A stretch of 64,000 nt of DNA. It comes from an uncultured delta proteobacterium. GTDB taxonomy: Bacteria > Desulfobacterota > Desulfobacteria > Desulfobacterales > JAFDCJ01. The notes under the pieces were generated by a model. The model was given only the letters and a program-made list of their open reading frames with translations. It made no database searches and was not told the DNA's origin. Shown here one piece after another: positions 13,427 to 54,221 of this stretch. A program made the translations under genes and the position numbers. The stretch covers positions 256,001 to 320,000 of the forward strand of contig CAVYNY010000010.1 in NCBI GenBank assembly GCA_963769935.1. The letters run 5' to 3'. The first letter of the stretch is position 1. Every line of letters begins with the position of its first letter.

Positions 13427-14860
13427 ATGGAAAAGAGTCATATCCTTGTTATCGATGATGAACCTGTAATTTGCCAAGGCTGTCGTCTGACGCTTTCAGA
13501 GCAGGGTCTTGTGGTGGAAACCTGCCGCAGAGGCAAAGATGCCCTTGAAATGCTGCTTGGGGGAGACTACGATCTGGCTCTGCTGGACATGAAGCTCCCG
13601 GATATGGACGGAATGGAGATTTTACGGAACCTCAAAAACGAAAGACCCGAAGTATATGTAATTGTCATGACCGGCTATTCCAGCGTCAGAAATGCCGTGG
13701 AAGCTATGAAATTGGGGGCTTTTGACTATCTCTCCAAGCCGTTTTCGGATGAAGAACTGCTGATCGCTGTGGAAAGGGCCATGGAGAACAAACGCCTGAA
13801 AGAAGAAAATCTTGCCCTCCGCCATCAGCTCAGCGAGCGGTATGATTTTGGCAATATAATCGGCGAAGACCCCAAAATAATTGAAGTATTTGATCAAATA
13901 CGAAAGGTCGCCCCCACCGACAGCACGGTGTTGCTGAGTGGTGATAGCGGCACGGGCAAAGAGCTTTTCGCTCGCGCTATTCACGCCCACAGCAAAAGGG
14001 CTGCACGACAATTCATAGCGGTGGATTGCAGTACGTTCTCGGCATCTTTGTTGGAAAGTGAGCTGTTCGGGCATGTTAAAGGCGCTTTTACCGGTGCGGT
14101 TAAAGATAAAGCCGGCATCTTCGAAGTGGCCGACCACGGCTCCCTTTTTCTGGACGAGGTGGCCAACTTGGACGTGGATATTCAGGCCAAACTACTGCGA
14201 TCCATGGAAACCCAGGAATTCAAACCAGTGGGCGCCAGTCACCTGAAAAGATCGGATATGCGCATCATTGCCGCCACCAACCGGGATTTGAAAACCATGG
14301 TGGATGAGGGCAATTTCCGGGAAGATCTCTTTTACCGCTTAAACGTATTTCCCATCTTAATCCCCCCGCTCAGAGAGAGAAGGGATGATATTCCGAGGTT
14401 GCTTTACCATTTCTTGAAGCTATACTGTCGCCAGACCGGCAAGCGAATCGACGGTTTTTCTGACGATGCCCTCAGAATGCTGATAAACTATGATTGGCCG
14501 GGAAATGTTCGTGAACTCAAAAATGTGGTCGAACGGCTGGTTATCCTCGCCGATGAACAAATTCTGGATCACCAAAGCTTGTCCGACCATTGGGGGATAA
14601 AGCGTAATCACCTCCCGGACGTCGTCCCAAAAACGTTGACAGCGCTCAAAGCAGTGAAGCAGCACCTGCTGGAAAACCAATTCGGTCAAATCGAAAAGGC
14701 TTTCGTTCAAGAGGCCCTTTCCGCTGAAAACGGCAATATCAGCCAAGCAGCCAAGCGAGTGGGCATGCAGCGATCAAATTTTTCCGCGCTCGTGAAAAAG
14801 CATGGCTTGTCTGCAAATCCCGCCAAAATGGCTTCGAAGGAGGGGCAGCATCTGAAATAA
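13427..14860 (+). CDS. Sigma54-dependent response regulator (NtrC/AtoC family)
   Basis: Receiver domain, GDSGTGKE Walker A, GAFTGA, WPGNVREL and Fis-type HTH. Confidence 0.95.
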   Translation: MEKSHILVIDDEPVICQGCRLTLSEQGLVVETCRRGKDALEMLLGGDYDLALLDMKLPDMDGMEILRNLKNERPEVYVIVMTGYSSVRNAVEAMKLGAFDYLSKPFSDEELLIAVERAMENKRLKEENLALRHQLSERYDFGNIIGEDPKIIEVFDQIRKVAPTDSTVLLSGDSGTGKELFARAIHAHSKRAARQFIAVDCSTFSASLLESELFGHVKGAFTGAVKDKAGIFEVADHGSLFLDEVANLDVDIQAKLLRSMETQEFKPVGASHLKRSDMRIIAATNRDLKTMVDEGNFREDLFYRLNVFPILIPPLRERRDDIPRLLYHFLKLYCRQTGKRIDGFSDDALRMLINYDWPGNVRELKNVVERLVILADEQILDHQSLSDHWGIKRNHLPDVVPKTLTALKAVKQHLLENQFGQIEKAFVQEALSAENGNISQAAKRVGMQRSNFSALVKKHGLSANPAKMASKEGQHLK

Positions 14861-15093: not shown

Positions 15094-15109
15094 TGGCACA
15101 GCCTTTGCT
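15094..15109 (+). promoter_or_regulatory. Sigma54 (-24/-12) promoter
   Basis: TGGCAC-AGCCT-TTGCT matches the TGGCAC-N5-TTGC consensus, 85 nt upstream of the 15195 ATG and just downstream of an NtrC-type activator gene. Confidence 0.8.
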
Positions 15110-15194: not shown

Positions 15195-15884
15195 ATGACA
15201 CGCCTACATGAAAATGCAGCAGTCGATTATGCTCCGCCCCCCCATATTTTAGTGATGGAAGATGATCAGAGTGTGGCCAAGGGGCTGGAGATGGTTTTGA
15301 GCGAGGAAGGCTATTTTGTAAATCTTGCAGATACGGGCGAGCTTGCCCTGGAAGCTTTTAAGCAAAAACGCTTTGATCTACTGGTGGCGGACTTGCGGCT
15401 GCCGGGTATCGGCGGGATGGAAGTCATCAAACAGGTCAAAGAAGCAACACCCGAAACCCAGATCATCGTGATTACAGGATATGGCACCACTGCCACAGCT
15501 GTGGAAGCCATGAGGCTCGGAGTTCATGATTTTCTGCCCAAACCCTTTACCGAAGATCAAATTAAGGCGGCCATCGGTGAAGCGCTTCAGAAGCAGGCGG
15601 AAAAACCTGCTGAAGCCGTTGTCAATAGGGCTGAAACAGAAGAACAAAAACTCATCCAGAAGCGGGAGATCCTTGCGGTATTAGGCCGGACTGCCGAAGA
15701 CATGGATTTCTGGACCGATTTGATGGAAAACGGATCTTCAGCCCTGACGGGCTATCAGCTTTCCAGCGAAGCCCAAGCGGCCATCGTATCCGGCGACTTG
15801 AGATGGATTAATGAAAATGTGGGAGAGCTTACCCAGAAACAACTGATGTTCATCTATAAGCGCCTGGAGCGGGAGGCCTGGTAA
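15195..15884 (+). CDS. Response regulator: receiver domain plus uncharacterised C-terminal helical domain
   Basis: GAGGAGG RBS; VMEDD, DLRLPG, ITGY and LPKPF receiver motifs. Confidence 0.85.
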   Translation: MTRLHENAAVDYAPPPHILVMEDDQSVAKGLEMVLSEEGYFVNLADTGELALEAFKQKRFDLLVADLRLPGIGGMEVIKQVKEATPETQIIVITGYGTTATAVEAMRLGVHDFLPKPFTEDQIKAAIGEALQKQAEKPAEAVVNRAETEEQKLIQKREILAVLGRTAEDMDFWTDLMENGSSALTGYQLSSEAQAAIVSGDLRWINENVGELTQKQLMFIYKRLEREAW

Positions 15885-16171: not shown

Positions 16172-17410
16172 ATGACTTCCTCGACGGAATTTGAAAATTA
16201 TTTCCACGTCTTCAGAGATATCATTCGAGCCATGCACTCCAGCAGCAGCCTGAAGGACGTGCTGAATGTGGTCGTGACCAAATCCGCTGATGTTCTGAAT
16301 GCGAAAGGCACGTTACTCAGAATTCGCAACAAAGAAACCAACCAGTTCGAAGTCAGGGCCGCCTACGGGCTGGGCGAACACTATCTGTTCAAGGGCCCGG
16401 TCACCACGGAAAAGTTGCTGTCGAACCCAAGCCAACTGCACAAGGTGCAGATCATCACGGACATCTGGCAAGCTCCCCGGGTTGAGTACCCGCAGCAAGC
16501 GTGGGATGAAGGTGTCCGCATGATGGTTGATGTACCGCTGGCCATCAAAGATGAGATGGTAGGTCTGATTCGCATCTACCTCACACAGCCGCGCGAGTTT
16601 TCCAGGGATGAGTTGGATTTTCTCGTCACGGTCGCCGAGCAATGCGCCTGTGTCATTGAACGGGTCCAGCTGATGGAAAACCGGCAGGCTCAGTTCACTC
16701 ATCTGGCAGGCCAGATGGAAAAACTGTCCGCGCTGGGCCGCATGGCCGCGGGAATCGCCCACGAAATCAACAACCCGCTGACCGGAATCCTGCTTTACAG
16801 TTCAAACATGAGCAAGAAGGTTCCCCCAGGCGGATATCTGGAAGAAGGCCTGAAGATCATCATGCGGGAAACCCAGCGCTGCAAAACCATTATCCAGGGA
16901 TTGCTCGAATTTGCGCGCCATAGAGAACCGCAGAAGGTCTTGGCCGATATCAACGATATTATGGAAAACGCCCTCAGCATCGTGAGCAATGAGTTTCACC
17001 TGCGGCATGTGCAACTTGAAAAACAGCTGGCCGAAAACATGGCCAAAACGATGCTGGATAAAACCCAAATCGAACAGGTATTTGTCAACTTACTGCTCAA
17101 TGCATTGCAGGCGGTCACAGAAAACGGTCGGATCACCGTCCGAAGTGCCATGGACCGGGGGCAAGAAAGAATCGAGGTCGAAGTTGCCGATAATGGCTGT
17201 GGCATTACCGTGGAGGATATCAAGAAAATTTTCGATCCGTTCTACTCTACAAGGAACGACGGAACCGGGCTGGGCTTGTCGGTCAGCTACGGGATCATTA
17301 AGAGTCATGAGGGTGACATCCAAGTGTACAGTGAACCGCGCCGGGATACAAGTTTTAAGGTTGTGCTTCCTATCCTGGTTGAAGAATCCGAGAAAAAAGG
17401 GGGCGCATGA
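16172..17410 (+). CDS. GAF-domain sensor histidine kinase (cytoplasmic)
   Basis: N-terminal GAF-like region; AHEINNPL H-box; N, DNGCG and GTGLGL boxes. Confidence 0.93.
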   Translation: MTSSTEFENYFHVFRDIIRAMHSSSSLKDVLNVVVTKSADVLNAKGTLLRIRNKETNQFEVRAAYGLGEHYLFKGPVTTEKLLSNPSQLHKVQIITDIWQAPRVEYPQQAWDEGVRMMVDVPLAIKDEMVGLIRIYLTQPREFSRDELDFLVTVAEQCACVIERVQLMENRQAQFTHLAGQMEKLSALGRMAAGIAHEINNPLTGILLYSSNMSKKVPPGGYLEEGLKIIMRETQRCKTIIQGLLEFARHREPQKVLADINDIMENALSIVSNEFHLRHVQLEKQLAENMAKTMLDKTQIEQVFVNLLLNALQAVTENGRITVRSAMDRGQERIEVEVADNGCGITVEDIKKIFDPFYSTRNDGTGLGLSVSYGIIKSHEGDIQVYSEPRRDTSFKVVLPILVEESEKKGGA

Positions 17411-17775
17411 AACCGCTCAGAATACTGATCATCGACGATGAAAGCGTCATCTGTGATGCCTGCCGGCTGGTTCTATCGGAAAAAGGATATGGGGTCGATC
17501 ATTGCCTGACCGGCAAAGCCGGTTTGTTGGCCATCGAAAGGGGCAGATATGACGTGATCCTGCTGGATATGAAGCTGCCCGACATAGACGGCACGGAGAT
17601 TCTGAAGGCTGTTAAAGAGAAAGCGCTTGGACCGTGTATGGTTGTCATGACAGGCTATGCCACCATGTCGAATGCGGTGAAAGCCATGAAACTGGGGGCG
17701 GTCGATTATCTGGCCAAGCCGTTTAGCGATGATGAACTGATCGAAGCCGTCGAAAAATGCCGTGCCAACCGTTGA
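17407..17775 (+). CDS. Single-domain response regulator
   Basis: IIDDE, DMKLPD, MTGY and LAKPF motifs. Confidence 0.92.
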   Translation: MKPLRILIIDDESVICDACRLVLSEKGYGVDHCLTGKAGLLAIERGRYDVILLDMKLPDIDGTEILKAVKEKALGPCMVVMTGYATMSNAVKAMKLGAVDYLAKPFSDDELIEAVEKCRANR

Positions 17776-17850: not shown

Positions 17851-20800
17851 ATGGAAAACAGGCAATTGAATACGGCAGTGCAGGGCGCCGTCATGGTCGT
17901 CGGCGGAGGGATTGCCGGCATGCAGGCGGCTCTGGACGTCGCAAATTCAGGCTACTATGTATATCTGGTGGAAAAATCTCCGGCCATCGGGGGGGCAATG
18001 GCCCAGCTGGATAAAACCTTCCCCACCAATGATTGTTCGATGTGAATCATCTCTCCCAAACTGGTCGAGGTCGGCCGGCACATCAACATCGAGTTGCTCA
18101 CCCTGTCGGAAGTGACGTCAATTGCGGGAGAAGAAGGCAATTTTGCGGTCACCGTTTTGCAGCAGCCACGCTACGTGGATCTGGAAAAATGCATTGCTTG
18201 CGGCCTTTGCGCCCAAAAATGCCCGAAAAAAGTTGATGACAAATACAATGAAAACTTGATTAAACGCAAAGCAATTTACGTTCCCTATCCCCAGGCGGTG
18301 CCCCTGAAATACGCCATTGACGCCGAAAACTGCATTTATCTTACCAAAGGGAAATGTGGCGCCTGTCAAAAGCTCTGCCCGGCGGGGGCTATCAATTTTA
18401 ACGACACCCAAAAGGAGATCAGGCTGCAGGTGGGCTCTGTCATCCTGGCGCCGGGATTTACCGCATTTGATCCGGCTCGCTTTGACTACTATTCCTATCT
18501 AAGCTCGCCGGATGTGGTAACCTCCCTCGAATTTGAACGGATTCTTTCGGCTACCGGGCCCTATTCCGGCCATCTGTTGCGCCCTTCCGGCATGCGTGGC
18601 CGGAGTCCGGCGGAACACCAGCCGCAAAAAATCGCCTGGCTGCAATGTGTGGGCTCCCGCGACCTCAACCGCTGTGACAACGGGTATTGTTCTGCGGTCT
18701 GCTGCATGTATGCCGTCAAGCAGGCTGTTATGGCAAAAGATCACAGCCGCACCGGCTTGGATTGCGCGATCTTTTACATGGACATGCGCACCCAGGGCAA
18801 GGATTTTGACCGCTACTACGAAAATGCCCAAAAAAGGGGCGTGCGCTTTATACCTGCCCGGATACACACCGTCCTGCCAATAGCGGGAAGCAACGACCTT
18901 CTGCTGCGCTATGTGGACGATAACGGCCGGCCGCAGGAAGAGGCCTTCGACATGGTGGTTCTTTCAACCGGCCTTGAAATCAGCCGGGATGCCATCGAAC
19001 TTTCGAATACCCTGGGTATAGAGCTGGACAAGTATCATTTTACCCGCTCGGACAGCTTTCATCCGGTGGCCACCTCAAGGCCGGGGATCTATGCCTGCGG
19101 GGCATTTACCGGGCCCAAAGACATCCCCCAATCGGTGATGGAAGCCAGTGCCGCGGCCTGCGCGGCCACCGAAAGCCTGGCTGCAGTCCGCAACACCCAA
19201 ACAAAAGCGGTTACAATACCGACGCAGCGCGACGTGAGCCGTGAGGTGCCCCGCATTGGGGTGTTCGTATGCAACTGCGGCATCAATATCGGCGGAATCG
19301 TCCGGGTACCGGAAGTCGCTGAATATGCCGGGACCCTGCCCGGTGTGGTGTACGTGGAAGAAAACCTTTTTACCTGTTCCCAGGACACCCAGGACAAAAT
19401 GACGGAAGTGATCCGCGAAAAGGCTCTAAACCGGGTGGTCGTGGCCGCCTGCACCCCCAGAACGCATGAAGGCTTGTTCCAGGAAACGCTGATTAATGCA
19501 GGGTTAAACAAGTATCTGATCGAAATGGCCAACATTCGCAACCAGGATTCATGGGTTCACTCCGATAATCCGGATGCGGCCACGAAAAAAGCCAAGGATC
19601 TTGTGCGCATGGCCGTGGCCAAGACCCTGTTTTCCAGCCCCCTGCAGGAGACCGCTCTGCCGGTGAGCCGGTCTGCGCTGGTGGTCGGTGCCGGTGTGGC
19701 CGGCATGACGGCCGCGTTGTCGCTGGCCCGGCAGGGATATCCGGTACATCTGGTGGAAAAATCCGACTTTTTAGGCGGCAACGCCCGCAACCTTCATAAA
19801 ACCTATCAGGATGAAGATATCGCGAGCTTTTTAGCGGATTTGATTCGACAAGTTGAAGCTGAACCACGCCTCAGCGTGCACCTGGGGACAACTATCAGCG
19901 CGGTTGAGGGGTTTGTCGGAAATTTTAGGATTGGGCTTTCAAACGGGTCTTCCCAGGAGACACTGAACTGCGGGGTTGCGATTCTGGCCATTGGCGCCGA
20001 AGAGTCCAAGCCGAAAGAATACTTGTACGGCGAGCATGCCGCCGTTGTCACTCACCTGGAAATGGATGAAATGCTCAGAAATGATGATCTGAGGATCCAG
20101 CGCGGCGGCGATGTGGTTTTCATCCAGTGTGTCGGCTCCAGAAACGAAGAACATCCCTATTGCTCGAAGGTGTGCTGTACCCACGCCATCAAGAGTGCTC
20201 TGGAACTGAAAAAGCGAAATCCTGAAATCAACGCTTACATTCTGTATCGCGATATCAGGACCTACGGAGAAAGAGAGGACCTCTACCGGGAAGCAAGAAG
20301 CCGGGGGATTCTTTTTTTCCGTTACCGGCCTGATGAAAGGCCGGAGGTCGCTGCGAGCGGCGACCGCGTGGCCGTCAGGTTTAACGATCCCATCCTCGGA
20401 CGCCGGCTGAGCGTCGATGCGGACATTCTTTGTCTGGCGGCGGCCATTGTGCCCCATGAAGATCTTGGTCTTGCCCGGTCTTTCAAGGTCCCCGTTGATG
20501 CCGATGGCTGGCTGCTGGAAGCCCACCAGAAGCTCAGGCCGGTAGAGTTCGCAACCGAGGGGGTTTTTCTGTGCGGAATGGGACACTATCCCAAACCGAT
20601 CGAAGAGAGCATCGCCCAGGCCCGGGCGGCCGCAGCCAAGGCGCTGACGATCCTGGCCTGCGAAAATATCATGGTCGGCGGGATTGTCGCTCACATCGAG
20701 CCCGGATTGTGCTCCGGGTGCCTGGGATGCATCAATGTTTGTCCCTATGCGGCCATCACGTTCAATGCTGAAAAAAGAATTGCCGAAGTTAATCAGGCCC

Positions 20801-20913
20801 TGTGCAAAGGATGTGGGGCCTGCGCGGCGGCATGCCCGTCGGAAGCGCCGGTTCTGGCCGGATTCAGCAACAGGCAGATTTATGCCCAGATCAAGAGTGC
20901 AATGAGCGCGTAA
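17851..20913 (+). CDS. hdrA: Large heterodisulfide reductase subunit A-like flavoprotein (two FAD modules), selenoprotein; UGA at 18043-18045
   Basis: ORFs 17851-18045 and 18094-20913 share a frame; [21 protein letters not shown] puts UGA at the conserved CxxC position; two GxGxxG motifs, two CVGSR...YCSxVCC motifs and ferredoxin motifs; 1020 aa if read through. Confidence 0.92.
18061..18078 (+). promoter_or_regulatory. SECIS-like hairpin of hdrA
   Basis: CTGGTCG-AGGT-CGGCCGG stem-loop beginning 15 nt after the UGA. Confidence 0.6.
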
Positions 20914-21075
20914 GCCTGCTGGTGCCGGTTGTTTGAAATTATTTGAGTGTTTTTGGGGCCCCAATTGGCAATGTTGAAAAAACGGGAAGGGAAACAGCCC
21001 CGTTGCCGGCCGGACCCACCTCAAACTTTAGTTCCCGGAAAGGCTTTCCGGCTTTATCCGGGGTCAGGAGAAGAT

Positions 21076-21561
21076 GTGAATCAAGAACAGTTCGAACCGA
21101 AAATTCTGGCTTTTATATGTAACTGGTGTGCATACGGCGCCGCGGATCTGGCCGGCGTCAGCCGCCTGCAGTATCCCCCCAATGTGCGCGCGATTCGGGT
21201 CATGTGCTCGGCCACTGTATCGCCGCATCATATTTTAAGGGCGCTGCAGGATGGCGCCGACGGTGTTTTGGTCGGCGGGTGACACATCGGCGACTGCCAT
21301 TACCTGTATGGTAATCACATGACGATTAAACGAATCACGTTTGTGCAGGAACTGCTGCGCTTTATGGGTCTTGAGGCGCGTCTCCACCTGGCATGGATAT
21401 CTTCAGCCGAAGCCCAGAAATTCGTCCAGGTGGTCACCGATTTTACGGCAAAAATCAGAGCGCTCGGACCGAATCCCCTGAAAGGGTATAGCGGATTCGT
21501 AAAAGCGGCCGGGTTGGAACCTGCTGCCGGTTTTGCAGAAAGCCATCCCGCCCGGCAGTAG
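21076..21561 (+). CDS. mvhD: MvhD/FlpD-family [2Fe-2S] hydrogenase subunit, selenoprotein; UGA at 21280-21282
   Basis: AGGAG RBS and GTG start; [46 protein letters not shown]; both halves in frame. Confidence 0.92.
21299..21315 (+). promoter_or_regulatory. SECIS-like hairpin of mvhD
   Basis: ATTACC-TGTAT-GGTAAT stem-loop about 16 nt after the UGA. Confidence 0.55.
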
Positions 21562-21610
21562 AATCCAAGCGGCCGAATACCGGTGCGTCGACTTGGTAGT
21601 GGAGAAGGAT

Positions 21611-22429
21611 ATGCATACTGAAATAAAACGCTGGCTTGAAAACGGAATCGTGGACGTTTTTCTGGGTTACAAAATGGTGATGAAACACCCCTTGCCGTAT
21701 TGTTTTGTCAAAGAAAAAATTGAGGAGGTGGATGAGCTGATCGTCGGGCCGGCCCGTTATTCCCTCGAAAAGATCGCCACGCATATTGCCGCCGCAAAGC
21801 CCGACATTAAGATCGGAATGCTGGCCCGCGACTGCAACCAGCGGGCATTAAACGTTTTGGCTATCTGGAATCAACTCAACCCGGAGCATATCAAAACCGT
21901 CAACGTGAATTGCTGCCCGTCCAATCTCAAAAAACATGGGGATTGCTCTTACCTGGACTCGGAAACGCCGGGATCCTACAAACAGAAGGTGGGAGTGGAC
22001 AATACCCTTGGCCCGCCGGACGTTGAGCGATTCAGTCAAGAGGAGCGGCTATCCAGGTGGATGTATGAATTTCAGAAATGCATCAAGTGTTACGGATGCC
22101 GGAATGTCTGCCCGGTCTGTTTCTGTAAAGAGTGCAGTCTGGAACACCGGGATTTGATCGCAACCGGTGCGCTGCCGCCGGAAGTGCCGGTCTTCCATCT
22201 GATCCGGGCCGTGCACATGGCCGGCCGGTGCATCGACTGCGGGCTGTGTGAGGATGCCTGTCCGGTGGATATCCCGCTGCGGCTGCTCTACCGCAAGGTC
22301 AATGAAATCGTCGTCAATGTTTTTAATTATGAAACCGGATCCGGTCCCGGCCAGTCGCCTTTCAGCATTTTGGGTGATACGGTAACCTTGGAACCGAAAC
22401 CGATCGAACTCGCAAAAACGGAAAGCTAA
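21611..22429 (+). CDS. 4Fe-4S dicluster protein, FdhB/FrhB-related
   Basis: CIKCYGCRNVCPVCFCKEC and HMAGRCIDCGLCEDACP motifs; GGAG RBS. Confidence 0.8.
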   Translation: MHTEIKRWLENGIVDVFLGYKMVMKHPLPYCFVKEKIEEVDELIVGPARYSLEKIATHIAAAKPDIKIGMLARDCNQRALNVLAIWNQLNPEHIKTVNVNCCPSNLKKHGDCSYLDSETPGSYKQKVGVDNTLGPPDVERFSQEERLSRWMYEFQKCIKCYGCRNVCPVCFCKECSLEHRDLIATGALPPEVPVFHLIRAVHMAGRCIDCGLCEDACPVDIPLRLLYRKVNEIVVNVFNYETGSGPGQSPFSILGDTVTLEPKPIELAKTES

Positions 22430-22443
22430 ACAAGGAGTAAGCA

Positions 22444-24489
22444 ATGCAGTGCAAGTTAGTGCCCTCGATCTGTTCATACTGCGGAACCGGTTGCGGAATC
22501 CTCTTTGAAGTGATTGATGGCAAAATCAACAGCACCCTGCCGATGAAAACCCATCCGGTCAATGAGGGCAAGCTGTGCATCAAAGGCTGGAACCTGCATG
22601 AGCATGTGAACAGCTTCATGCGCCTGAAGCAACCGCTGGTTAAGACGTTTGGCAGATTCATCAAGGCCGAATGGGACGAAGCCATTCAGATAACGGCGGA
22701 GCGTTTCCGCGAAATCATCGAAAAGTACGGCCCGGATGCCGTCGGCGTGCTGGTATCGGCCAAAATAACCAATGAAGAAAATTATCTGGCTCAAAAATTT
22801 GCCAGAGCTGTGATCGGCACCAACAACGTCGATCACTGCGCCCGTCTCTGACACTCTTCGACGGTGGCCGGTCTGGCCGCCGCTTTCGGCAGCGGTGCCA
22901 TGACGAATTCCATTGCGGATATCGAAGAGGCCGGCTGCATATTTGTAATCGGGTCCAATACCACGGCCTGCCACCCGCTGATCGCCCGGCGTATCTTCCG
23001 GGCCAAGGAAAAAGGTGCCAAACTGATCGTGGCGGATCCGAGAAACATCCAGCTTTCCCGCTTTGCGGATGTGGCGGTCAATCATCGGCTGGGCAGCGAT
23101 GTGGCCCTGCTGAACGGCATGATGCACATTATCATCAAAAACGGCTGGCATGCCAAAGACTACATTGCGCAGCGGACCGAGGACTACGGCGCTCTGGAAA
23201 AGGCCGTCAGCGAATACACCCCGGACAGGGTCGCCGGCCTGACCGGGGTTGACCGCAAGCACCTGGAACGCATGGCCGAACTCTACGCTACGCATCCGCC
23301 GGCCAGCCTTTTGTATGCCATGGGCATTACCCAGCACACCACGGGTGTAGATAATGTCAAGTCCTGCTGCAATCTGGCGATGCTGTGCGGCAATGTAGGG
23401 GTTCGCGGTGGCGGCGTGAATCCATTGAGAGGCCAGAACAATGTTCAAGGGGCCTGTGACATGGGAGGATTGCCCAACGTGCTGACCGGCTATCAGCCCG
23501 TGGCTGACCCGGGCGTCCGCAAAAAATTTTCCGAGGCATGGGGGAAACCGCTTCCCGAGCGCCCCGGTCTAACCATAACGGACATGATCCCCGCCATGCT
23601 GGAAGGAAAACTCAAGGCTTTGTATGTGATCGGGGAGAATCCCAAACTGAGCGACCCGGACTGGAACCACCTGAATCATGCCCTTAAAAAACTTGATTTT
23701 CTGGTTGTTCAGGAGCTGTTTTTATCGGAAACCGCCCAGGTGGCCGATGTGGTGTTGGCGGCCGCATCGGTGGCTGAAAAAGAAGGCACGTTTACCAATA
23801 CGGAACGCCGCTGTATGAGGATTCACAAGGCAATTGAGCCCATCGGCAACACTCTGGCTGACTGGGAAATCATCTGCCGGCTTTCAAACGCCATGGGCTA
23901 CGGGATGAATTACGAAACCCCTGAAGAAATATTCAACGAAATGGTATCCCTGACCCCCAAAAGCTATGCCGGCATGACGTACGAGCGGTTGGGCTTAGAC
24001 GGTCTGCAGTGGCCGTGTCCGGACGGCGATCACCCGGGAACTCCCTACTTGCACAAAGATCAATTTACCCGGGGCAAGGGCAAATTTCACGCCATCGAAT
24101 ATCAGGATCCAGCGGAAATGCCTGATGAAAATTACCCTTATTTTCTGACCACCGGCCGAATGTTTGCCCATTTTCACACCGGCACAATGACCAGAATTTC
24201 GCCGCATCTGGATGTCGAGCAGACAACCGGCTATGTTTCCATCAACCCGAAGGACGCCGAGGCCTTGGTAGTCAAAGAGGGAGATGTGCTGGTTCTTTCG
24301 TCGCGCAGAGGCCGGTTGGAAGCTCCGGCAAAAATAAGCCCTGCGGTAGAACCCGGCACCCTTTTTCTGCCCATCCACTTTGGCGAAAACCCGACCAATG
24401 TGCTGACGAGCGCCGAGGCGGTTGACCCCCTGGCCAAAATCCCGGAATTTAAGGTGAGCGCTGTTAAAGTTGAAAAATTGTCGGTCTAG
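22444..24489 (+). CDS. fdhF: Cytoplasmic formate dehydrogenase alpha subunit (Mo/W-bisPGD), selenoprotein; UGA at 22849-22851
   Basis: CSYCGTGC...LC Fe-S motif, DHCARL-UGA-HSSTV active-site motif, LRGQNNVQG; no Tat signal; 681 aa if read through. Confidence 0.95.
22862..22882 (+). promoter_or_regulatory. SECIS hairpin of fdhF
   Basis: CGGTGGCC-GGTCT-GGCCGCCG; the GGUCU loop and about 11-nt spacing resemble the E. coli fdhF SECIS. Confidence 0.75.
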
Positions 24490-28275: not shown

Positions 28276-29260
28276 CTATGGCATCAGCGCGGCCGGCACG
28301 GAAATACCTTTTTCTTTCAAATACTTGACTGTCCCCGGATGCAACGGAATGGGTGAGTATTTTACCGCGTTTTCCGGTGTCGTGTAGGAAGCCGAAGGAT
28401 GAATTTTAAGCAAATAGTCCTGATGATCGTAAAGGGCTTTCACCAGATTGTATACCAGGTCCGTATCCAGCGACTTCTGACAAATCATCACGTTCCAAAC
28501 ACCGATGGTCGGAACCGGTTTGTCGACTCCCCGGTAAACGCCGCCGGCCAGATCGACAGCCGAATATTCCTGATTGGCGGCCAGAATCCTTTTTTGCTGC
28601 TCGGGCGTAATGGCAATAATCTGGATATCATGGGTAGTTGCCAAGATCCAGAATGGAGCTGGTGCCGGGTCCCACCGACCAGAATCCCACATCGATTGTG
28701 CCGTCCCGCAATGCGTTGGCCGTTTCGGTAAATGACAGCCGGCTGTCGCTGTAAGAATCCAATGGAATCCCAAGGGCTTTGAACACCGTCTCGGACATAA
28801 AATTGGTTCCGCTGCCGGGGCTGCCCGAGCTGATTTTTTTTCCTTTGATCTGTTCAATGTCGGTGATTCCGCTTTTTTTCAGCACGACCACCTGCAGCAG
28901 GTTGGGATACATGACGGCCATCGACAGGATATTGTATTTCTTGCCCTGAAACTTGGACAGTCCGCTGAAACCGGCCACCGCCACATCCCCCATGACCTCA
29001 CCGACCACGGTTTCCCCCTTGTCGGCCAGTTTAACATTCTCCACGCTCGCGCCGGTGACCTCGGCCACCGCCTTAACGCCTTTGACGTACTTGGTCCAGA
29101 TCTCAGCCACGCCGCCGCCGTAGGGGTAGTAAATGCCGCCCGTGCCGCCCGTGCCGATGGAAATAAATTGCGTCTTGGCCGACGCGGGCCCCGCCAATAT
29201 GAGAACGGAGCACAATATCACAACGCCGGTCAGGAAAATTTTAAGATTCAATTTTTTCAT
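28276..29260 (-). CDS. TAXI-family TRAP solute-binding protein, split by a +1 frameshift near 28640
   Basis: IGTGGTGGIYY, TGASVEN, GSGT...SSILDL continues as ATTHDIQII...IPLHPG in another frame. Confidence 0.85.
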
Positions 29261-50697: not shown

Positions 50698-51012
50698 TTA
50701 TATAAATGGGATAGAATGAAAGAGGCGATACTGGCGACCTAAATAAACGAGCGTTTCCCCGCTGATGTATTTTTTCGGTGCCGGCAGCGGGTGATACCTT
50801 TCGAGTGCATCGAGTTTGCCCGTAATCCAGGCCGCTTTTTTAATCACCGCAGTCTCAATTTGCTCTTCGTTGGCGGTGGCGGGTGCAAACACATCGACTG
50901 TAAGTTCCGGCGAAACGACAATGCGCATCCTTCGGCGATCCTGGCGATGAAGTTTGTAGGCGATCTCGCGGGTACCGAATGCAATTGCCTTTATGGATTT
51001 GTCAGTTCTCAT
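50698..51012 (-). pseudogene. Truncated M48/YgjP (DUF45) metallopeptidase
   Basis: RRRMRIVV...KKAAWI...YISGETLVYLGRQYRL, then abrupt end; no HEXXH; usual position after hsdR. Confidence 0.7.
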
Positions 51013-54000
51013 TAGCGATGGCCACCTCTATGCAGCGATCGATAATGGCGTCATGGTCATCCAGCGTCAGCTCCAGGCCGCGCTTTTTCTCAATGTCAAA
51101 CAGGATATCATCAATTTCACCGCGCATTCTATTAATGGCGTCCGGGTTGGTTCGCCAGTCACGGATCTTGTGCCTGGCGATTCGGTCAACCATTTCAATC
51201 GCAATCTCGGCCCCGGTGTTTTCGCTATATGTGCCGTATGCTGCAATCCGTTCGCGAACCTGACCGAAATAGCGTCTTGCCATGTCATTTCCCACAAGTC
51301 CGGCAGGGACATCGTCATCGGTGTGGGTAACGACTTTGGTGGAGATCTCCTTGATTTTCCCGAGGGCCTCCAGAGCGTTCAACCGTCCTTGATGATAGGT
51401 CTCAATAACCTCTTCAAGAAGCCTGGAAAATTTTTGGTAAAAGGCCGGATCCTTGCCCATTTCCTGCTCAATAACGTGGCGGGTGGCAGACGCGATCATA
51501 TCGGCTTTGGCACCCTGACTCTTGCCATTCTCTTCAATTAACTGCAGGCGGTCACTTTCATTTAACAGGTTGATGGGCTCACAAAGCTGTTCCACTTCAC
51601 CGCCGCCCACATGCGTATCGATCAGCTTTTTGATTTTTGGCTCATATTCGGAAAAATCGACGACTTCCTGGTAGCGGAGCGTGACCGCCGCCCTGAGATT
51701 CTGGAAGAACTTGAGATCCTTTTTATACCTTTCAATTGTTTCCCTTTTGGTCGATCCCAAAAAGTTACTCGATGACAATGCCAATGCCAACGTACGTGCA
51801 AACAGACTGAACCGTTCATAAAACCGATTTCGCAGATCGGCATCCCGTAAATGGATTTCGTAAGCTTCAGGATCTTTGGAGCCCCTCAATTGAGTGAAGA
51901 GCTCCCAAAGGTTAGAGTGCATCTGGGGCAAACTTGCGGCCTGATCCGAAATATAGGTCACCGTCTGCTCAAGATCGATACGGTCATAATCCGCCAGTTG
52001 ACTGTAGAAATCAATGGCTTCATCCAGGCTTTCGATCACGCCGCTGTAATCTAGAATCAGGCCGTATTCTTTGCCCTCGTGCAGACGATTGACGCGGGCG
52101 ATGGCCTGCAGCAGCGTATGTTCTTTCAGTTTGCGAGCCAGATACAAAACCGTGTTGCACGGAGCATCAAAACCGGTCAGAAGTTTATCGACAACGATAA
52201 TGATCTCCGGGGTTTCTCCGTGTTTGAAGGCATTGATTAACTGCTTGTTGTATTTCTGCTCGGACCCATAGCGATCCATCATCGACTGCCAGAAATCTTT
52301 CTCCGTTTGTGACGGCCCGGTACCGGCGCTTTCGCCTTCCTGGCTGGGAAGGTGCGGAAATCAAGACCTCGGTGGAAACCAGACTGATACTCGTCCATAA
52401 ATTGCTTATAGGCAATCGCCGTATTTTTGTCCGGCGTCACCAGTTGGCCCTTTAGGCCTGTGTTCTGATAAAACATACTGTAATGAAGACCCACATCCCA
52501 GGCGATCATGCGCACTTTTTGGATCGCTTTATTGAGTTGACGCTCGGTGGAAAACTTCCTTTTCAGGTCGGCTTTCTGATCAACGGTCAAGGCCGATGGT
52601 CATTTTTTCGAACCAGCCGTCAATGGACTTTTTGTCAACTTCCTGCGGCACATGTCGGGCCTCATACAGCAGCGGCACCACGGCCCCGTCTTTAACTGCC
52701 CGTGCGATGGTATAGGCCGGCTGAAAAAGATCGCCGAACTGGGCAAAAGTATTCTTCTTTGCCGATTTGGCCAGGGGCGTGCCGGTAAAGGCAATAAAAC
52801 AGGCGCCTTTCAGGGCCAGTCGCATGCGGGCGTGCTGCTCGCTGTATTGGCTGCGATGCCCCTCATCCACGAGAACGAATGTGTTGCGATCTGCCTGCAA
52901 GCTTTTTATTTGATGTGGCCACCGCGAACTTATGAATAAGGGTCGTGATGATTTGGATTCGTTGATCCTGCAGCAATTCGACGAGATGCTTGCCGGTATT
53001 GGCCTGTTCCGGCTCCAGGCTGCAGGCGCGAAAAGTGCCGCAGATCTGATCGTCCAGATCGATCCGGTCGGTTACCAGAATGACTTTTGGGTTGGCAATT
53101 TCCGGATGCAGGGCCAAAGATTTTGCCAGCATGACCATGGTTAGCGATTTGCCGCTGCCCTGGGTATGCCAGACAACACCGCCGGGCCGGGGTCCGTCTG
53201 AATGCTCGCTTAGAACACGGTCTATGATGGAATGGACTGTAAAATACTGCTGATAGCGTGCAATCTTTTTCGTGCCGTTGTCAAACAGGATAAATTTATA
53301 GGAAAGCTCCAGCAGACGTTGGGGCCGGCACAGGGCATACAGGGCACGGTCCTGTTCGTAAATTTCGCGCCCCTGATCGAGGATCCTGCGGTATTCGTTT
53401 TTTACATCTGCAAATGGTCCGGACATCAACCGTTCCGTATCCGTAACGCTTAAAGGCATTTCCAGCATGCTGCGGATCGCCGCATCAATGCGGTCTTCCT
53501 GCCAGGCAGCCCAGAACTGCCGCCGCGTGCCGGTAGTGCCGTAGCGGGCCTTGTCCCGCGCCAGCGCCAGCAAAAGCTGGCTGTATAAAAATAGCTGGGG
53601 GATGCCGTCCCGGTCCTGGTAATCGGATAGCTGGTCAATGGCAAGATCAATCGGCTTCTTTTTAACCTGGGTATAGGCAGACCGTTTGCACTCAATCACC
53701 ACCAGCGGGATGCCGTTTACAAACAGGACAATATCCGGGATGTAATGCTTGTCATACCCGACCCGCTCGACCTTGAACTCCGCCGTGCAATGATAGGAAT
53801 TGTTTGCCGGATTTTTCCAATCGATATAGTCGATGGTAAAACTCTTGGTATCGCCTTCCACGGTCTGAGGCACACTGGTACCTAGACAGAGCAGATCATA
53901 GAGTTGTTCGTTCTCGTGCAGCGCACCGGTGGCCCGGAAATTTTTGATTGCCTGCAGCGCGTTCTGGATGGCATTTTCAGTAAAAGGGTGGACGGCCCCT

Positions 54001-54221
54001 TTGAACAGGTAGCGGCAATGATTCCGGATGTGGTCGATCAGGATCGGCTCTAAAACAACGGCGCCCAACCGTCCGTTGCGCAGCTTGACGGTCTCCTCCG
54101 GGGCCAGGTACTGCCAGCCCATCTGCATCAACAGGTGCAAAGCCGGCAGCTGGGACTGAACCTTTTCCAGGTAGCTGGGCAGATCGTACTCGGATGCGCC
54201 GAATGGGGTTTGGTTTTCCAT
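51002..54221 (-). CDS. hsdR: Type I restriction endonuclease R subunit, split into four or more frames
   Basis: PDIVLFVNGIPLVVIECK, WHTQGSGKS, VTDR, DEGHRSQY, FTGTP, LLTGFDAP and LLQAIARVNR motifs spread over consecutive ORFs. Confidence 0.9.

Follow-up and report, generated by a model that had tools for sequence, protein, structure and literature searches.

The HdrA, MvhD and formate dehydrogenase (Fdh) families are known selenoprotein families, and operons encoding several selenoproteins have been described in Deltaproteobacteria (PMC13188914). For Desulfobacterium autotrophicum HRM2, the published account (Strittmatter et al. 2009, PMC2702500) reports that mvhD is part of all hdrA and hdrL loci with one exception, that fdhA comes immediately after fdhB in loci V and VI, and that the genome encodes selenocysteine (Sec) forms of HdrA, HdrL, MvhD and a cytoplasmic FdhA. 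Sec-containing HdrA, MvhD and cytoplasmic FdhA are also listed for Desulfococcus multivorans (PMC5109826), and an HdrABC/HdrL-MvhD-FeS cluster has been described (PMC5947623). The four-gene cluster analyzed here, hdrA-mvhD-fdhB-like-fdhA, lies in a stretch of 64,000 nucleotides (the window) from an uncultured delta proteobacterium of the Desulfobacterales (contig CAVYNY010000010.1, positions 256,001 to 320,000) and is an ordinary example of a gene arrangement that is in print and found across dozens of Desulfobacterota genomes. As far as the published description allows a comparison, loci V and VI of HRM2 share with it the gene order hdr-mvhD-fdhB-fdhA and a cytoplasmic FdhA; different from HdrL, which has an NADH-binding insert, the HdrA of our cluster is without one, and the published text gives the Sec forms of HRM2 for the genome as a whole.

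The FdhAB-MvhD(VhuD)-HdrABC complex of methanogens (9T1S from M. maripaludis; 7BKB; PMC13518236), as described, is composed of homologous FdhA, FdhB, MvhD and HdrA, and the same columns of HdrA and FdhA carry Sec; furthermore, the equivalents of its E356/K409 and CxxC/U197 are kept in our cluster at the first flavin (FAD1). The differences are that the operon lacks HdrB and HdrC, that HdrA appears as a fused, permuted pseudo-dimer, and that the FdhB-like protein, short of methanogen FdhB by about 110 aa, has no detectable F420/FAD Pfam domain, with cofE not found in the genome. According to the text of the paper on BamE-BamF of class II benzoyl-CoA reductase (bioRxiv 10.64898/2026.04.10.717634), the HdrA of that system is likewise fused and binds two FAD, of which the N-terminal one bifurcates; a CxxC pair is placed close to residue 60, and the MvhD-type adaptor carries Sec. 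In our cluster, in contrast, the input is FdhA-FdhB instead of BamGHI, the CxxC holds Sec, and neither BamD (high-potential branch) nor BamBC (low-potential branch) is encoded in cis. Hdr-linked cytoplasmic formate dehydrogenases have also been reported for the HdrBCA-MvhD-FdhBA clusters of Desulfobacula toluolica Tol2 and marine Chloroflexi, with Sec-FdhA and an Fe-S-only FdhB (PMC5736913), and for the bacterial HdrL-MvhD-FdhAB cluster of Desulfurivibrio dismutans (PMC12142623). As these reports describe them, such clusters carry hdrBC or NAD(P)-binding domains, whereas the compact form studied here has neither in cis. With regard to FlxABCD-HdrABC, the NADH dehydrogenase FlxA and FlxB were not matched in the window.

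Gene cluster and in-frame UGA codons

All four genes are co-directional on the forward strand, and hdrA, mvhD and fdhA hold exactly one in-frame TGA each. In particular, hdrA (17851 to 20913) encodes a fused two-FAD protein of 1020 aa ("type II", BamE-like), whose TGA (18043 to 18045) corresponds to U65 in the context NDCSM-U-IISP; mvhD/vhuD (21076 to 21561, with a GTG start) encodes a [2Fe-2S] adaptor of 161 aa (PF02662, E 1.3e-51), with U69 at 21280 to 21282 (LVGG-U-HIGDCH); gene 3 (21611 to 22429) encodes a shortened FdhB-like Fe-S protein of 272 aa and has no internal TGA; and fdhA (22444 to 24489) encodes a cytoplasmic, FdhF-type formate dehydrogenase of 681 aa with a Mo/W-bis(pyranopterin guanine dinucleotide) cofactor (Mo/W-bisPGD), in which U136 (22849 to 22851, CARL-U-HSS) is the predicted metal ligand. 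The initial annotation, made from the letters of the sequence, had claimed that three of four consecutive genes are each broken by a single in-frame TGA (18043, 21280 and 22849) and that standard annotation would report fragments. The frames indeed read through as claimed, and translation table 11 breaks hdrA, mvhD and fdhA each at its own TGA, so that three of these four genes come out in pieces from gene callers that treat UGA as a stop. The gene identities proposed at that stage were right as well.

At the column of U65, HdrA of M. maripaludis (9SFI_A) has Sec (given as X) and 5ODC has Cys197, and at the column of U136, FdhA of M. maripaludis (9T1S_L) has Sec (X). Cys occupies the UGA columns in other solved HdrA, MvhD and FdhA chains (5ODC, 7BKB, 7QV7), and paralogues within the same genome have TGA or TGC/TGT at the matching sites. 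Related loci were retrieved through gene 3, the 80 loci (L numbers) being the best-scoring of at least 475 relatives and hence biased to close kin; codon counts cover the 78 that aligned (all but L085 and L086), neighborhood and architecture counts leave out L082 to L086, and identity cut-offs of 45 to 65% were applied in the counts of codons, residue conservation and silent sites. TGA occurs at the HdrA site in 58 of the 59 loci that cover it and at the MvhD site in 70 of 72, the remainder having Cys codons, and at the FdhA site in all 71. All three TGAs are kept in 55 of the 78 loci; the majority of the remaining loci are truncated where their contigs end. The expectation of Cys or Sec at each UGA column is thus borne out by the solved HdrA, MvhD and FdhA chains and by the related loci, whereas the claim that the complex needs Sec at three positions was too strong, since the orthologous locus L076 has Cys in MvhD.

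Contigs from public sequencing runs span each TGA with no differences (18043 in X3, 21280 in X1, 22849 in X1 and X3), which argues against a base error and for a genuine TGA in place of TGT or TGC at all three sites; these contigs may share their origin with the assembly and do not count as independent biology. Contigs of the RNA run X6, 96 to 99% alike, cover parts of all four genes, although a contig from an RNA library is not proof of transcription.

In bacteria, the Sec insertion sequence (SECIS) is a hairpin placed just 3' of the UGA, with a G near the start of its loop. A hairpin of 6 to 7 bp whose loop has G as its first or second base follows each of the three UGA codons on the forward strand, at 18061 to 18078 in hdrA (7-bp stem, AGGU loop), 21299 to 21315 in mvhD (6-bp stem, UGUAU loop) and 22863 to 22881 in fdhA (7-bp stem, GGUCU loop). 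Taken alone this rule is weak, as it is also satisfied by control codons (Cys, 30 of 72; random, 46 of 120); because of this background of about 40%, we relied instead on silent-site constraint, expressed as the share of the dominant codon at conserved residues over codons +5 to +12 after the UGA. The share was 0.89 in hdrA versus 0.58 elsewhere (none of 398 other codon windows as high), 0.93 in mvhD versus 0.57 (none of 64) and, more modestly, 0.74 in fdhA versus 0.59 (1 of 323), values to be read with overlapping codon windows and related genomes in mind. Of the SECIS search suggested in the initial annotation, what stands is the occurrence of hairpins at all three sites together with this constraint, rather than the hairpin rule by itself.

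The genome contains intact selB, tRNA-Sec and two selD genes, each selD with its own in-frame TGA, and a selA that is frameshifted in this assembly. The breaks in selA are assembly errors, since both EF-Tu genes are broken likewise and the contigs of runs X1 to X4 lack three single bases that the assembly has in excess in selA; once they are accounted for, the four genes selA, selB, selC and selD are all present. The Sec or Cys columns and the Sec machinery make it likely that the three UGAs are read as Sec. If they were instead true stops or sequencing errors, the genes would be pseudogenes, or Sec insertion would be dead through the broken selA, and the frameshift in selA and the further indel breaks of the assembly could be taken in that sense. 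We rejected this explanation, whose probability is practically negligible, in view of the agreement of the contigs, the selA bases missing from X1 to X4 along with the similarly broken EF-Tu genes, the recurrence of the TGAs across dozens of genomes together with the silent-site constraint that follows them, and the in-frame TGA in both selD genes. Two further genes of the window, on the reverse strand, appear frameshifted, a TRAP/TAXI binding-protein gene (28399 to 29260) and a type I restriction subunit-like gene (50698 to 54221), probably through the same assembly indel errors that affect selA and EF-Tu.

Predicted flavin and iron-sulfur sites of the encoded proteins

HdrA matches HdrA profile models with scores below their whole-protein cut-offs. 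Residues 10 to 444, with the FAD domain and the inserted ferredoxin, align to residues 142 to 566 of HdrA in 5ODC, and the second half comprises an N-terminal cluster domain, an insert-free second FAD domain and a C-terminal ferredoxin; on the basis of this alignment, the protein is a fused, permuted pseudo-dimer. It presents the features of type II HdrA (PMC12054007): FAD is bound by two TrxR domains, both of which contain a CVGSR..CSxVCC cluster, and the N-terminal domain is permuted. All 1020 aa align to two plain HdrA halves, with no GltD-like NAD(P)H insert of the HdrL/type III kind found. By homology, the first TrxR domain (TrxR1) holds C62-x-x-U65, a cluster at C266/C280/C284/C285, and E229 and K290; the ferredoxin inserted in TrxR1 (C114 to C176) holds two [4Fe-4S]; the N-terminal-type cluster domain after TrxR1 has C474/476/509/534; the second TrxR domain (TrxR2), with no CxxC, has a cluster at C760/771/775/776 together with D739 and K781; and the C-terminal ferredoxin (C954 to C995) holds another two [4Fe-4S].

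E356 and K409 of 5ODC, indicated as marks of bifurcating HdrA in PMC12054007, correspond to E229 and K290 in the first FAD domain and to D739 and K781 in the second. Among the related HdrA, E229, K290 and the four cluster Cys of TrxR1 are invariant in 61 of 61 sequences and C62 in 59 of 59; the position of K781 is Lys in 32 of 64, the position of E356 in TrxR2 is Asp or Gln in 64 of 64, and the cluster Cys of TrxR2 are equally invariant (64 of 64). In BamE, as reported, the bifurcating FAD is in TrxR1 with a Cys59-Cys62 pair, and the second FAD is non-bifurcating or structural (bioRxiv 10.64898/2026.04.10.717634). The asymmetry between FAD1 and the second flavin (FAD2) in our HdrA mirrors BamE, and by analogy FAD2 is probably structural.

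The closest sequence matches of gene 3 are FdhB chains, and the best PDB matches of gene 3 and FdhA are chains of one Hdr-Vhu-Fdh complex, 9T1S. The C-terminal part of the gene 3 product contains 11 invariant Cys as well as H202, the N-terminal part another 4 Cys that are nearly invariant, and three to four [4Fe-4S] are predicted for the protein. The AlphaFold model compares with 8RVU_E at Z 12.0 and rmsd 3.5 over 193 aligned residues, a comparison that mostly tests residues 1 to 115, the model being poor in the Fe-S part (mean pLDDT 68.5; most of residues 159 to 206 under 50). The FrhB/FdhB F420-FAD Pfam domains gave no match in any of 98 gene 3 family members (E 0.05), and cofE was sought and not found in this genome (96.7% complete); on account of these two results, gene 3 most likely encodes an Fe-S wire, even though the modeled fold is still FdhB-like and may retain a residual FAD site.

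FdhA passes TIGR01591 (832 bits, cut-off 666) and keeps the CxxCxxxC..C cluster, K47, U136-H137 and R329, and its second-best match is the CO2 reductase subunit FdhF (7QV7). Inspection of the sequence revealed no twin-arginine motif, in agreement with the soluble enzyme proposed in the initial annotation.

Predicted electron path and the second acceptor

In a sample of 201 genomes of the class, a close orthologue of gene 3, counted alone, is encoded by 28, our genome being one of them. The named relatives are mostly Desulfobacterales, among them the cultured Desulfosarcina alkanivorans PL12 (L026); no HRM2 sequence appeared among the loci or the named matches. The four genes travel together across the related loci. 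With respect to architecture, 48 of 75 loci have a compact HdrA, in 8 HydC-HydB divides HdrA, whose inserted ferredoxin is there joined to an Fe-S domain, and 17 are cut or otherwise arranged; a GltD-like insert in HdrA occurs in one locus (L021), L079 being binned as such only through a downstream hdrA. Just downstream of the operon, two loci have a second Sec-FdhA followed by hydC-hydB (L013:12507-16805 and L049:7628-12260). A formyltransferase-family gene (PF00551 and PF02911) is found on the opposite strand in nine related loci and not in this window; in L044 it stands directly behind fdhA (L044:11051-11968), which may indicate a link to formyl-tetrahydrofolate.

The four genes likely specify one cytoplasmic complex. 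We propose, giving the idea about an even chance of being right, that it would split formate electrons between ferredoxin and a trans-encoded partner of the HdrBC or HdrD type that serves DsrC. In the path drawn by homology to 9T1S/7BKB and BamEF, with the high-potential partner assumed, electrons would pass from formate to the Mo/W-Sec136 site and the [4Fe-4S] of FdhA, then through the clusters of the shortened FdhB to the C-terminal ferredoxin of HdrA and on to [2Fe-2S]/Sec69 of MvhD. MvhD would in turn deliver them to C62-x-x-U65 and FAD1 (E229, K290) of HdrA, the putative site of bifurcation, from which the low-potential electron would cross the C474 cluster and the ferredoxin domain inserted in HdrA to reach ferredoxin, and the high-potential electron would leave through the C266-C285 cluster for a CCG protein encoded in trans and finally a DsrC-type heterodisulfide. 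The invariance of E229, K290 and C62 at FAD1 suggests bifurcation, E229 and K290 being the counterparts of the marks E356/K409 named in PMC12054007. Also in favor of the proposal are the architecture shared with BamE, the match of FdhA and gene 3 to chains of one complex (9T1S), the hdrB- or hdrD-like gene present in cis in 5 of the 75 loci (L021, L030, L033, L072 and L079), the HdrBCA-MvhD-FdhBA clusters reported for D. toluolica and Chloroflexi, and dsrA and 31 CCG-domain matches elsewhere in the genome, where acsB is found as well; these CCG matches could serve in trans, and no single candidate could be singled out.

Several observations weigh against this proposal. No match to hdrB, hdrC, hdrD, hydB/C or flxA/B was found within the 64-kb window, and none to hdrB/C/D in 45 of the 48 compact loci (flanks of at most 8 kb from gene 3, often cut); similarly, the FlxA/FlxB-like proteins of the genome itself, labeled by eye, had no match in the window or the 75 loci. 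With no gene for a second acceptor in cis, the trans partner has to be assumed. The retention of the TrxR1 cluster is weak evidence, the TrxR2 cluster being equally invariant and its BamE counterpart, as described, non-branching. In the 8 loci of 75 with the NADH-type HydC-HydB inserted in HdrA, no hdrB/C/D was seen, an arrangement that fits HdrA acting as a wire. A purification, assay or mutant study of an HdrBC-free bacterial cluster was not found in the literature, subscription journals lying mostly outside the search. Of the soluble bifurcating or confurcating complex that the initial annotation had put forward, the Sec codons, the gene identities and the joint travel of the genes stand, while bifurcation or confurcation by the four proteins alone is not borne out, given that the HdrBC branch is not in the window and gene 3 has no FrhB/FdhB domain.

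In a rather unlikely alternative, HdrA-MvhD would amount to a gated wire and no more, and the same complex would work as a formate:ferredoxin (or CO2:ferredoxin) oxidoreductase without bifurcation. It would account for the missing high-potential partner in cis, both in the window and in 45 of 48 compact loci, and for the eight loci in which HdrA takes up the HydC-HydB NADH module at the end with the inserted ferredoxin; that module is itself of bifurcating type according to the account of it in bioRxiv 10.64898/2026.04.10.717634. However, FAD1 has invariant E229, K290 and C62-x-x-U65, the equivalent Lys varies at FAD2, and a two-flavin protein of 1020 aa would seem a costly wire. It is also unlikely that the same hardware, again with a partner in trans, runs as a confurcating system, where reduced ferredoxin and a thiol donor of higher potential (DsrC) would reduce CO2 to formate, for the Wood-Ljungdahl pathway's methyl branch or for syntrophic formate release. 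Such a use would suit the presence of acsB, the match of FdhA to the CO2 reductase FdhF (7QV7) and the HdrL-MvhD-FdhAB cluster of Desulfurivibrio dismutans, which is described as lying among Wood-Ljungdahl genes with a proposed role in CO2 reduction (PMC12142623), but the conserved neighbors of our cluster are two-component genes only and include no Wood-Ljungdahl genes, and the direction is not readable from sequence.

Very improbable, in our judgment, is a self-contained complex with both flavins active, FAD2 serving a soluble co-substrate, for instance NAD(P) or a small disulfide, as second acceptor. K781 and the acidic D739 are kept in this copy, and PMC12054007 puts forward an ability to bifurcate for both domains of type II HdrA; on the other hand, K781 is replaced in half of the related HdrA (32 of 64), the position of E356 in TrxR2 is never Glu, TrxR2 lacks a CxxC, and the BamE structure, as reported, favors a structural second FAD. 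Returning to bifurcation with a partner in trans, it is possible to hypothesize, tentatively, that the compact module is a stand-alone formate-bifurcating core of sulfate reducers, which has lost its fixed HdrBC arm and binds interchangeable high-potential partners in trans, and to which relatives have added hdrB/hdrD, a GltD insert or HydBC as an NADH module. If true, the four-subunit core would be the smallest handle on the gating of the flavin by Cys-Sec in HdrA and Sec in MvhD. The cultured carrier D. alkanivorans PL12 makes the missing second acceptor experimentally approachable.

Upstream regulatory genes and other loci of the genome

The conserved neighbors of the cluster across the related loci are two-component genes only, counted in 55 loci with at least 1200 bases upstream. 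In the window, on the forward strand, these comprise a sigma-54-dependent response regulator of the NtrC/AtoC family, likely the activator of the cluster (13427 to 14860; upstream in 32 of 55 loci), a response regulator with a conserved C-terminal domain of about 80 aa that belongs to no known family (15195 to 15884; 38 of 55), a sensor histidine kinase (16172 to 17410; 36 of 55) and a single-domain response regulator that ends 75 nt before hdrA (17407 to 17775; 34 of 55). A site resembling a sigma-54 (-24/-12) promoter lies at 15094 to 15108 on the same strand, 101 nt ahead of the next gene. Within the window the pattern occurs no more often than by chance (21 matches versus 24 expected), but a similar site stands 70 to 160 nt before this response-regulator gene in 22 of 38 related loci, and the site is therefore the probable start of the transcript. 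Expression is likely driven from this putative sigma-54 promoter by the adjacent two-component system; a scan of the window for sigma-70 promoters and terminators gave results at chance level.

The C-terminal domain of about 80 aa (15645 to 15884 in the window) is found upstream of hdrA in 40 of 55 loci. It had no family match in a profile search and no usable match in the ESM Atlas. In two loci (L072:3267-4202 and L073:1737-2621), it is fused to another domain instead of a response regulator, a partner that presumably resembles the glycine-cleavage H protein.

Three other loci of the same genome (G000; contigs given as C numbers) encode Hdr modules. A second module at G000:C16:266028-276018 contains a short Sec-hdrA fragment, hydC, hydB, an Fe-S::hdrA fusion and Sec-mvhD, followed by three flxC/B/A-like genes (labeled by eye), so that NADH-type modules stand at both ends. 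A Sec-HdrA cluster at G000:C9:267328-277875 has the order hdrA-mvhD-hdrA-mvhD-hdrC-hdrB-like, with a metF-like open reading frame at its end (labels by eye), and another at G000:C22:101927-109761 (AOR-like/Fe-S/CCG/hdrA/mvhD, labels by eye) resembles bamBCDEF. Moreover, G000:C11:285724-286876 holds a tRNA-Pyl(CUA) gene and a pylS C-terminal domain that scores over its cut-off, with a corrinoid-protein-like open reading frame adjoining (by eye), from which it appears likely that the genome uses both Sec and pyrrolysine (Pyl).

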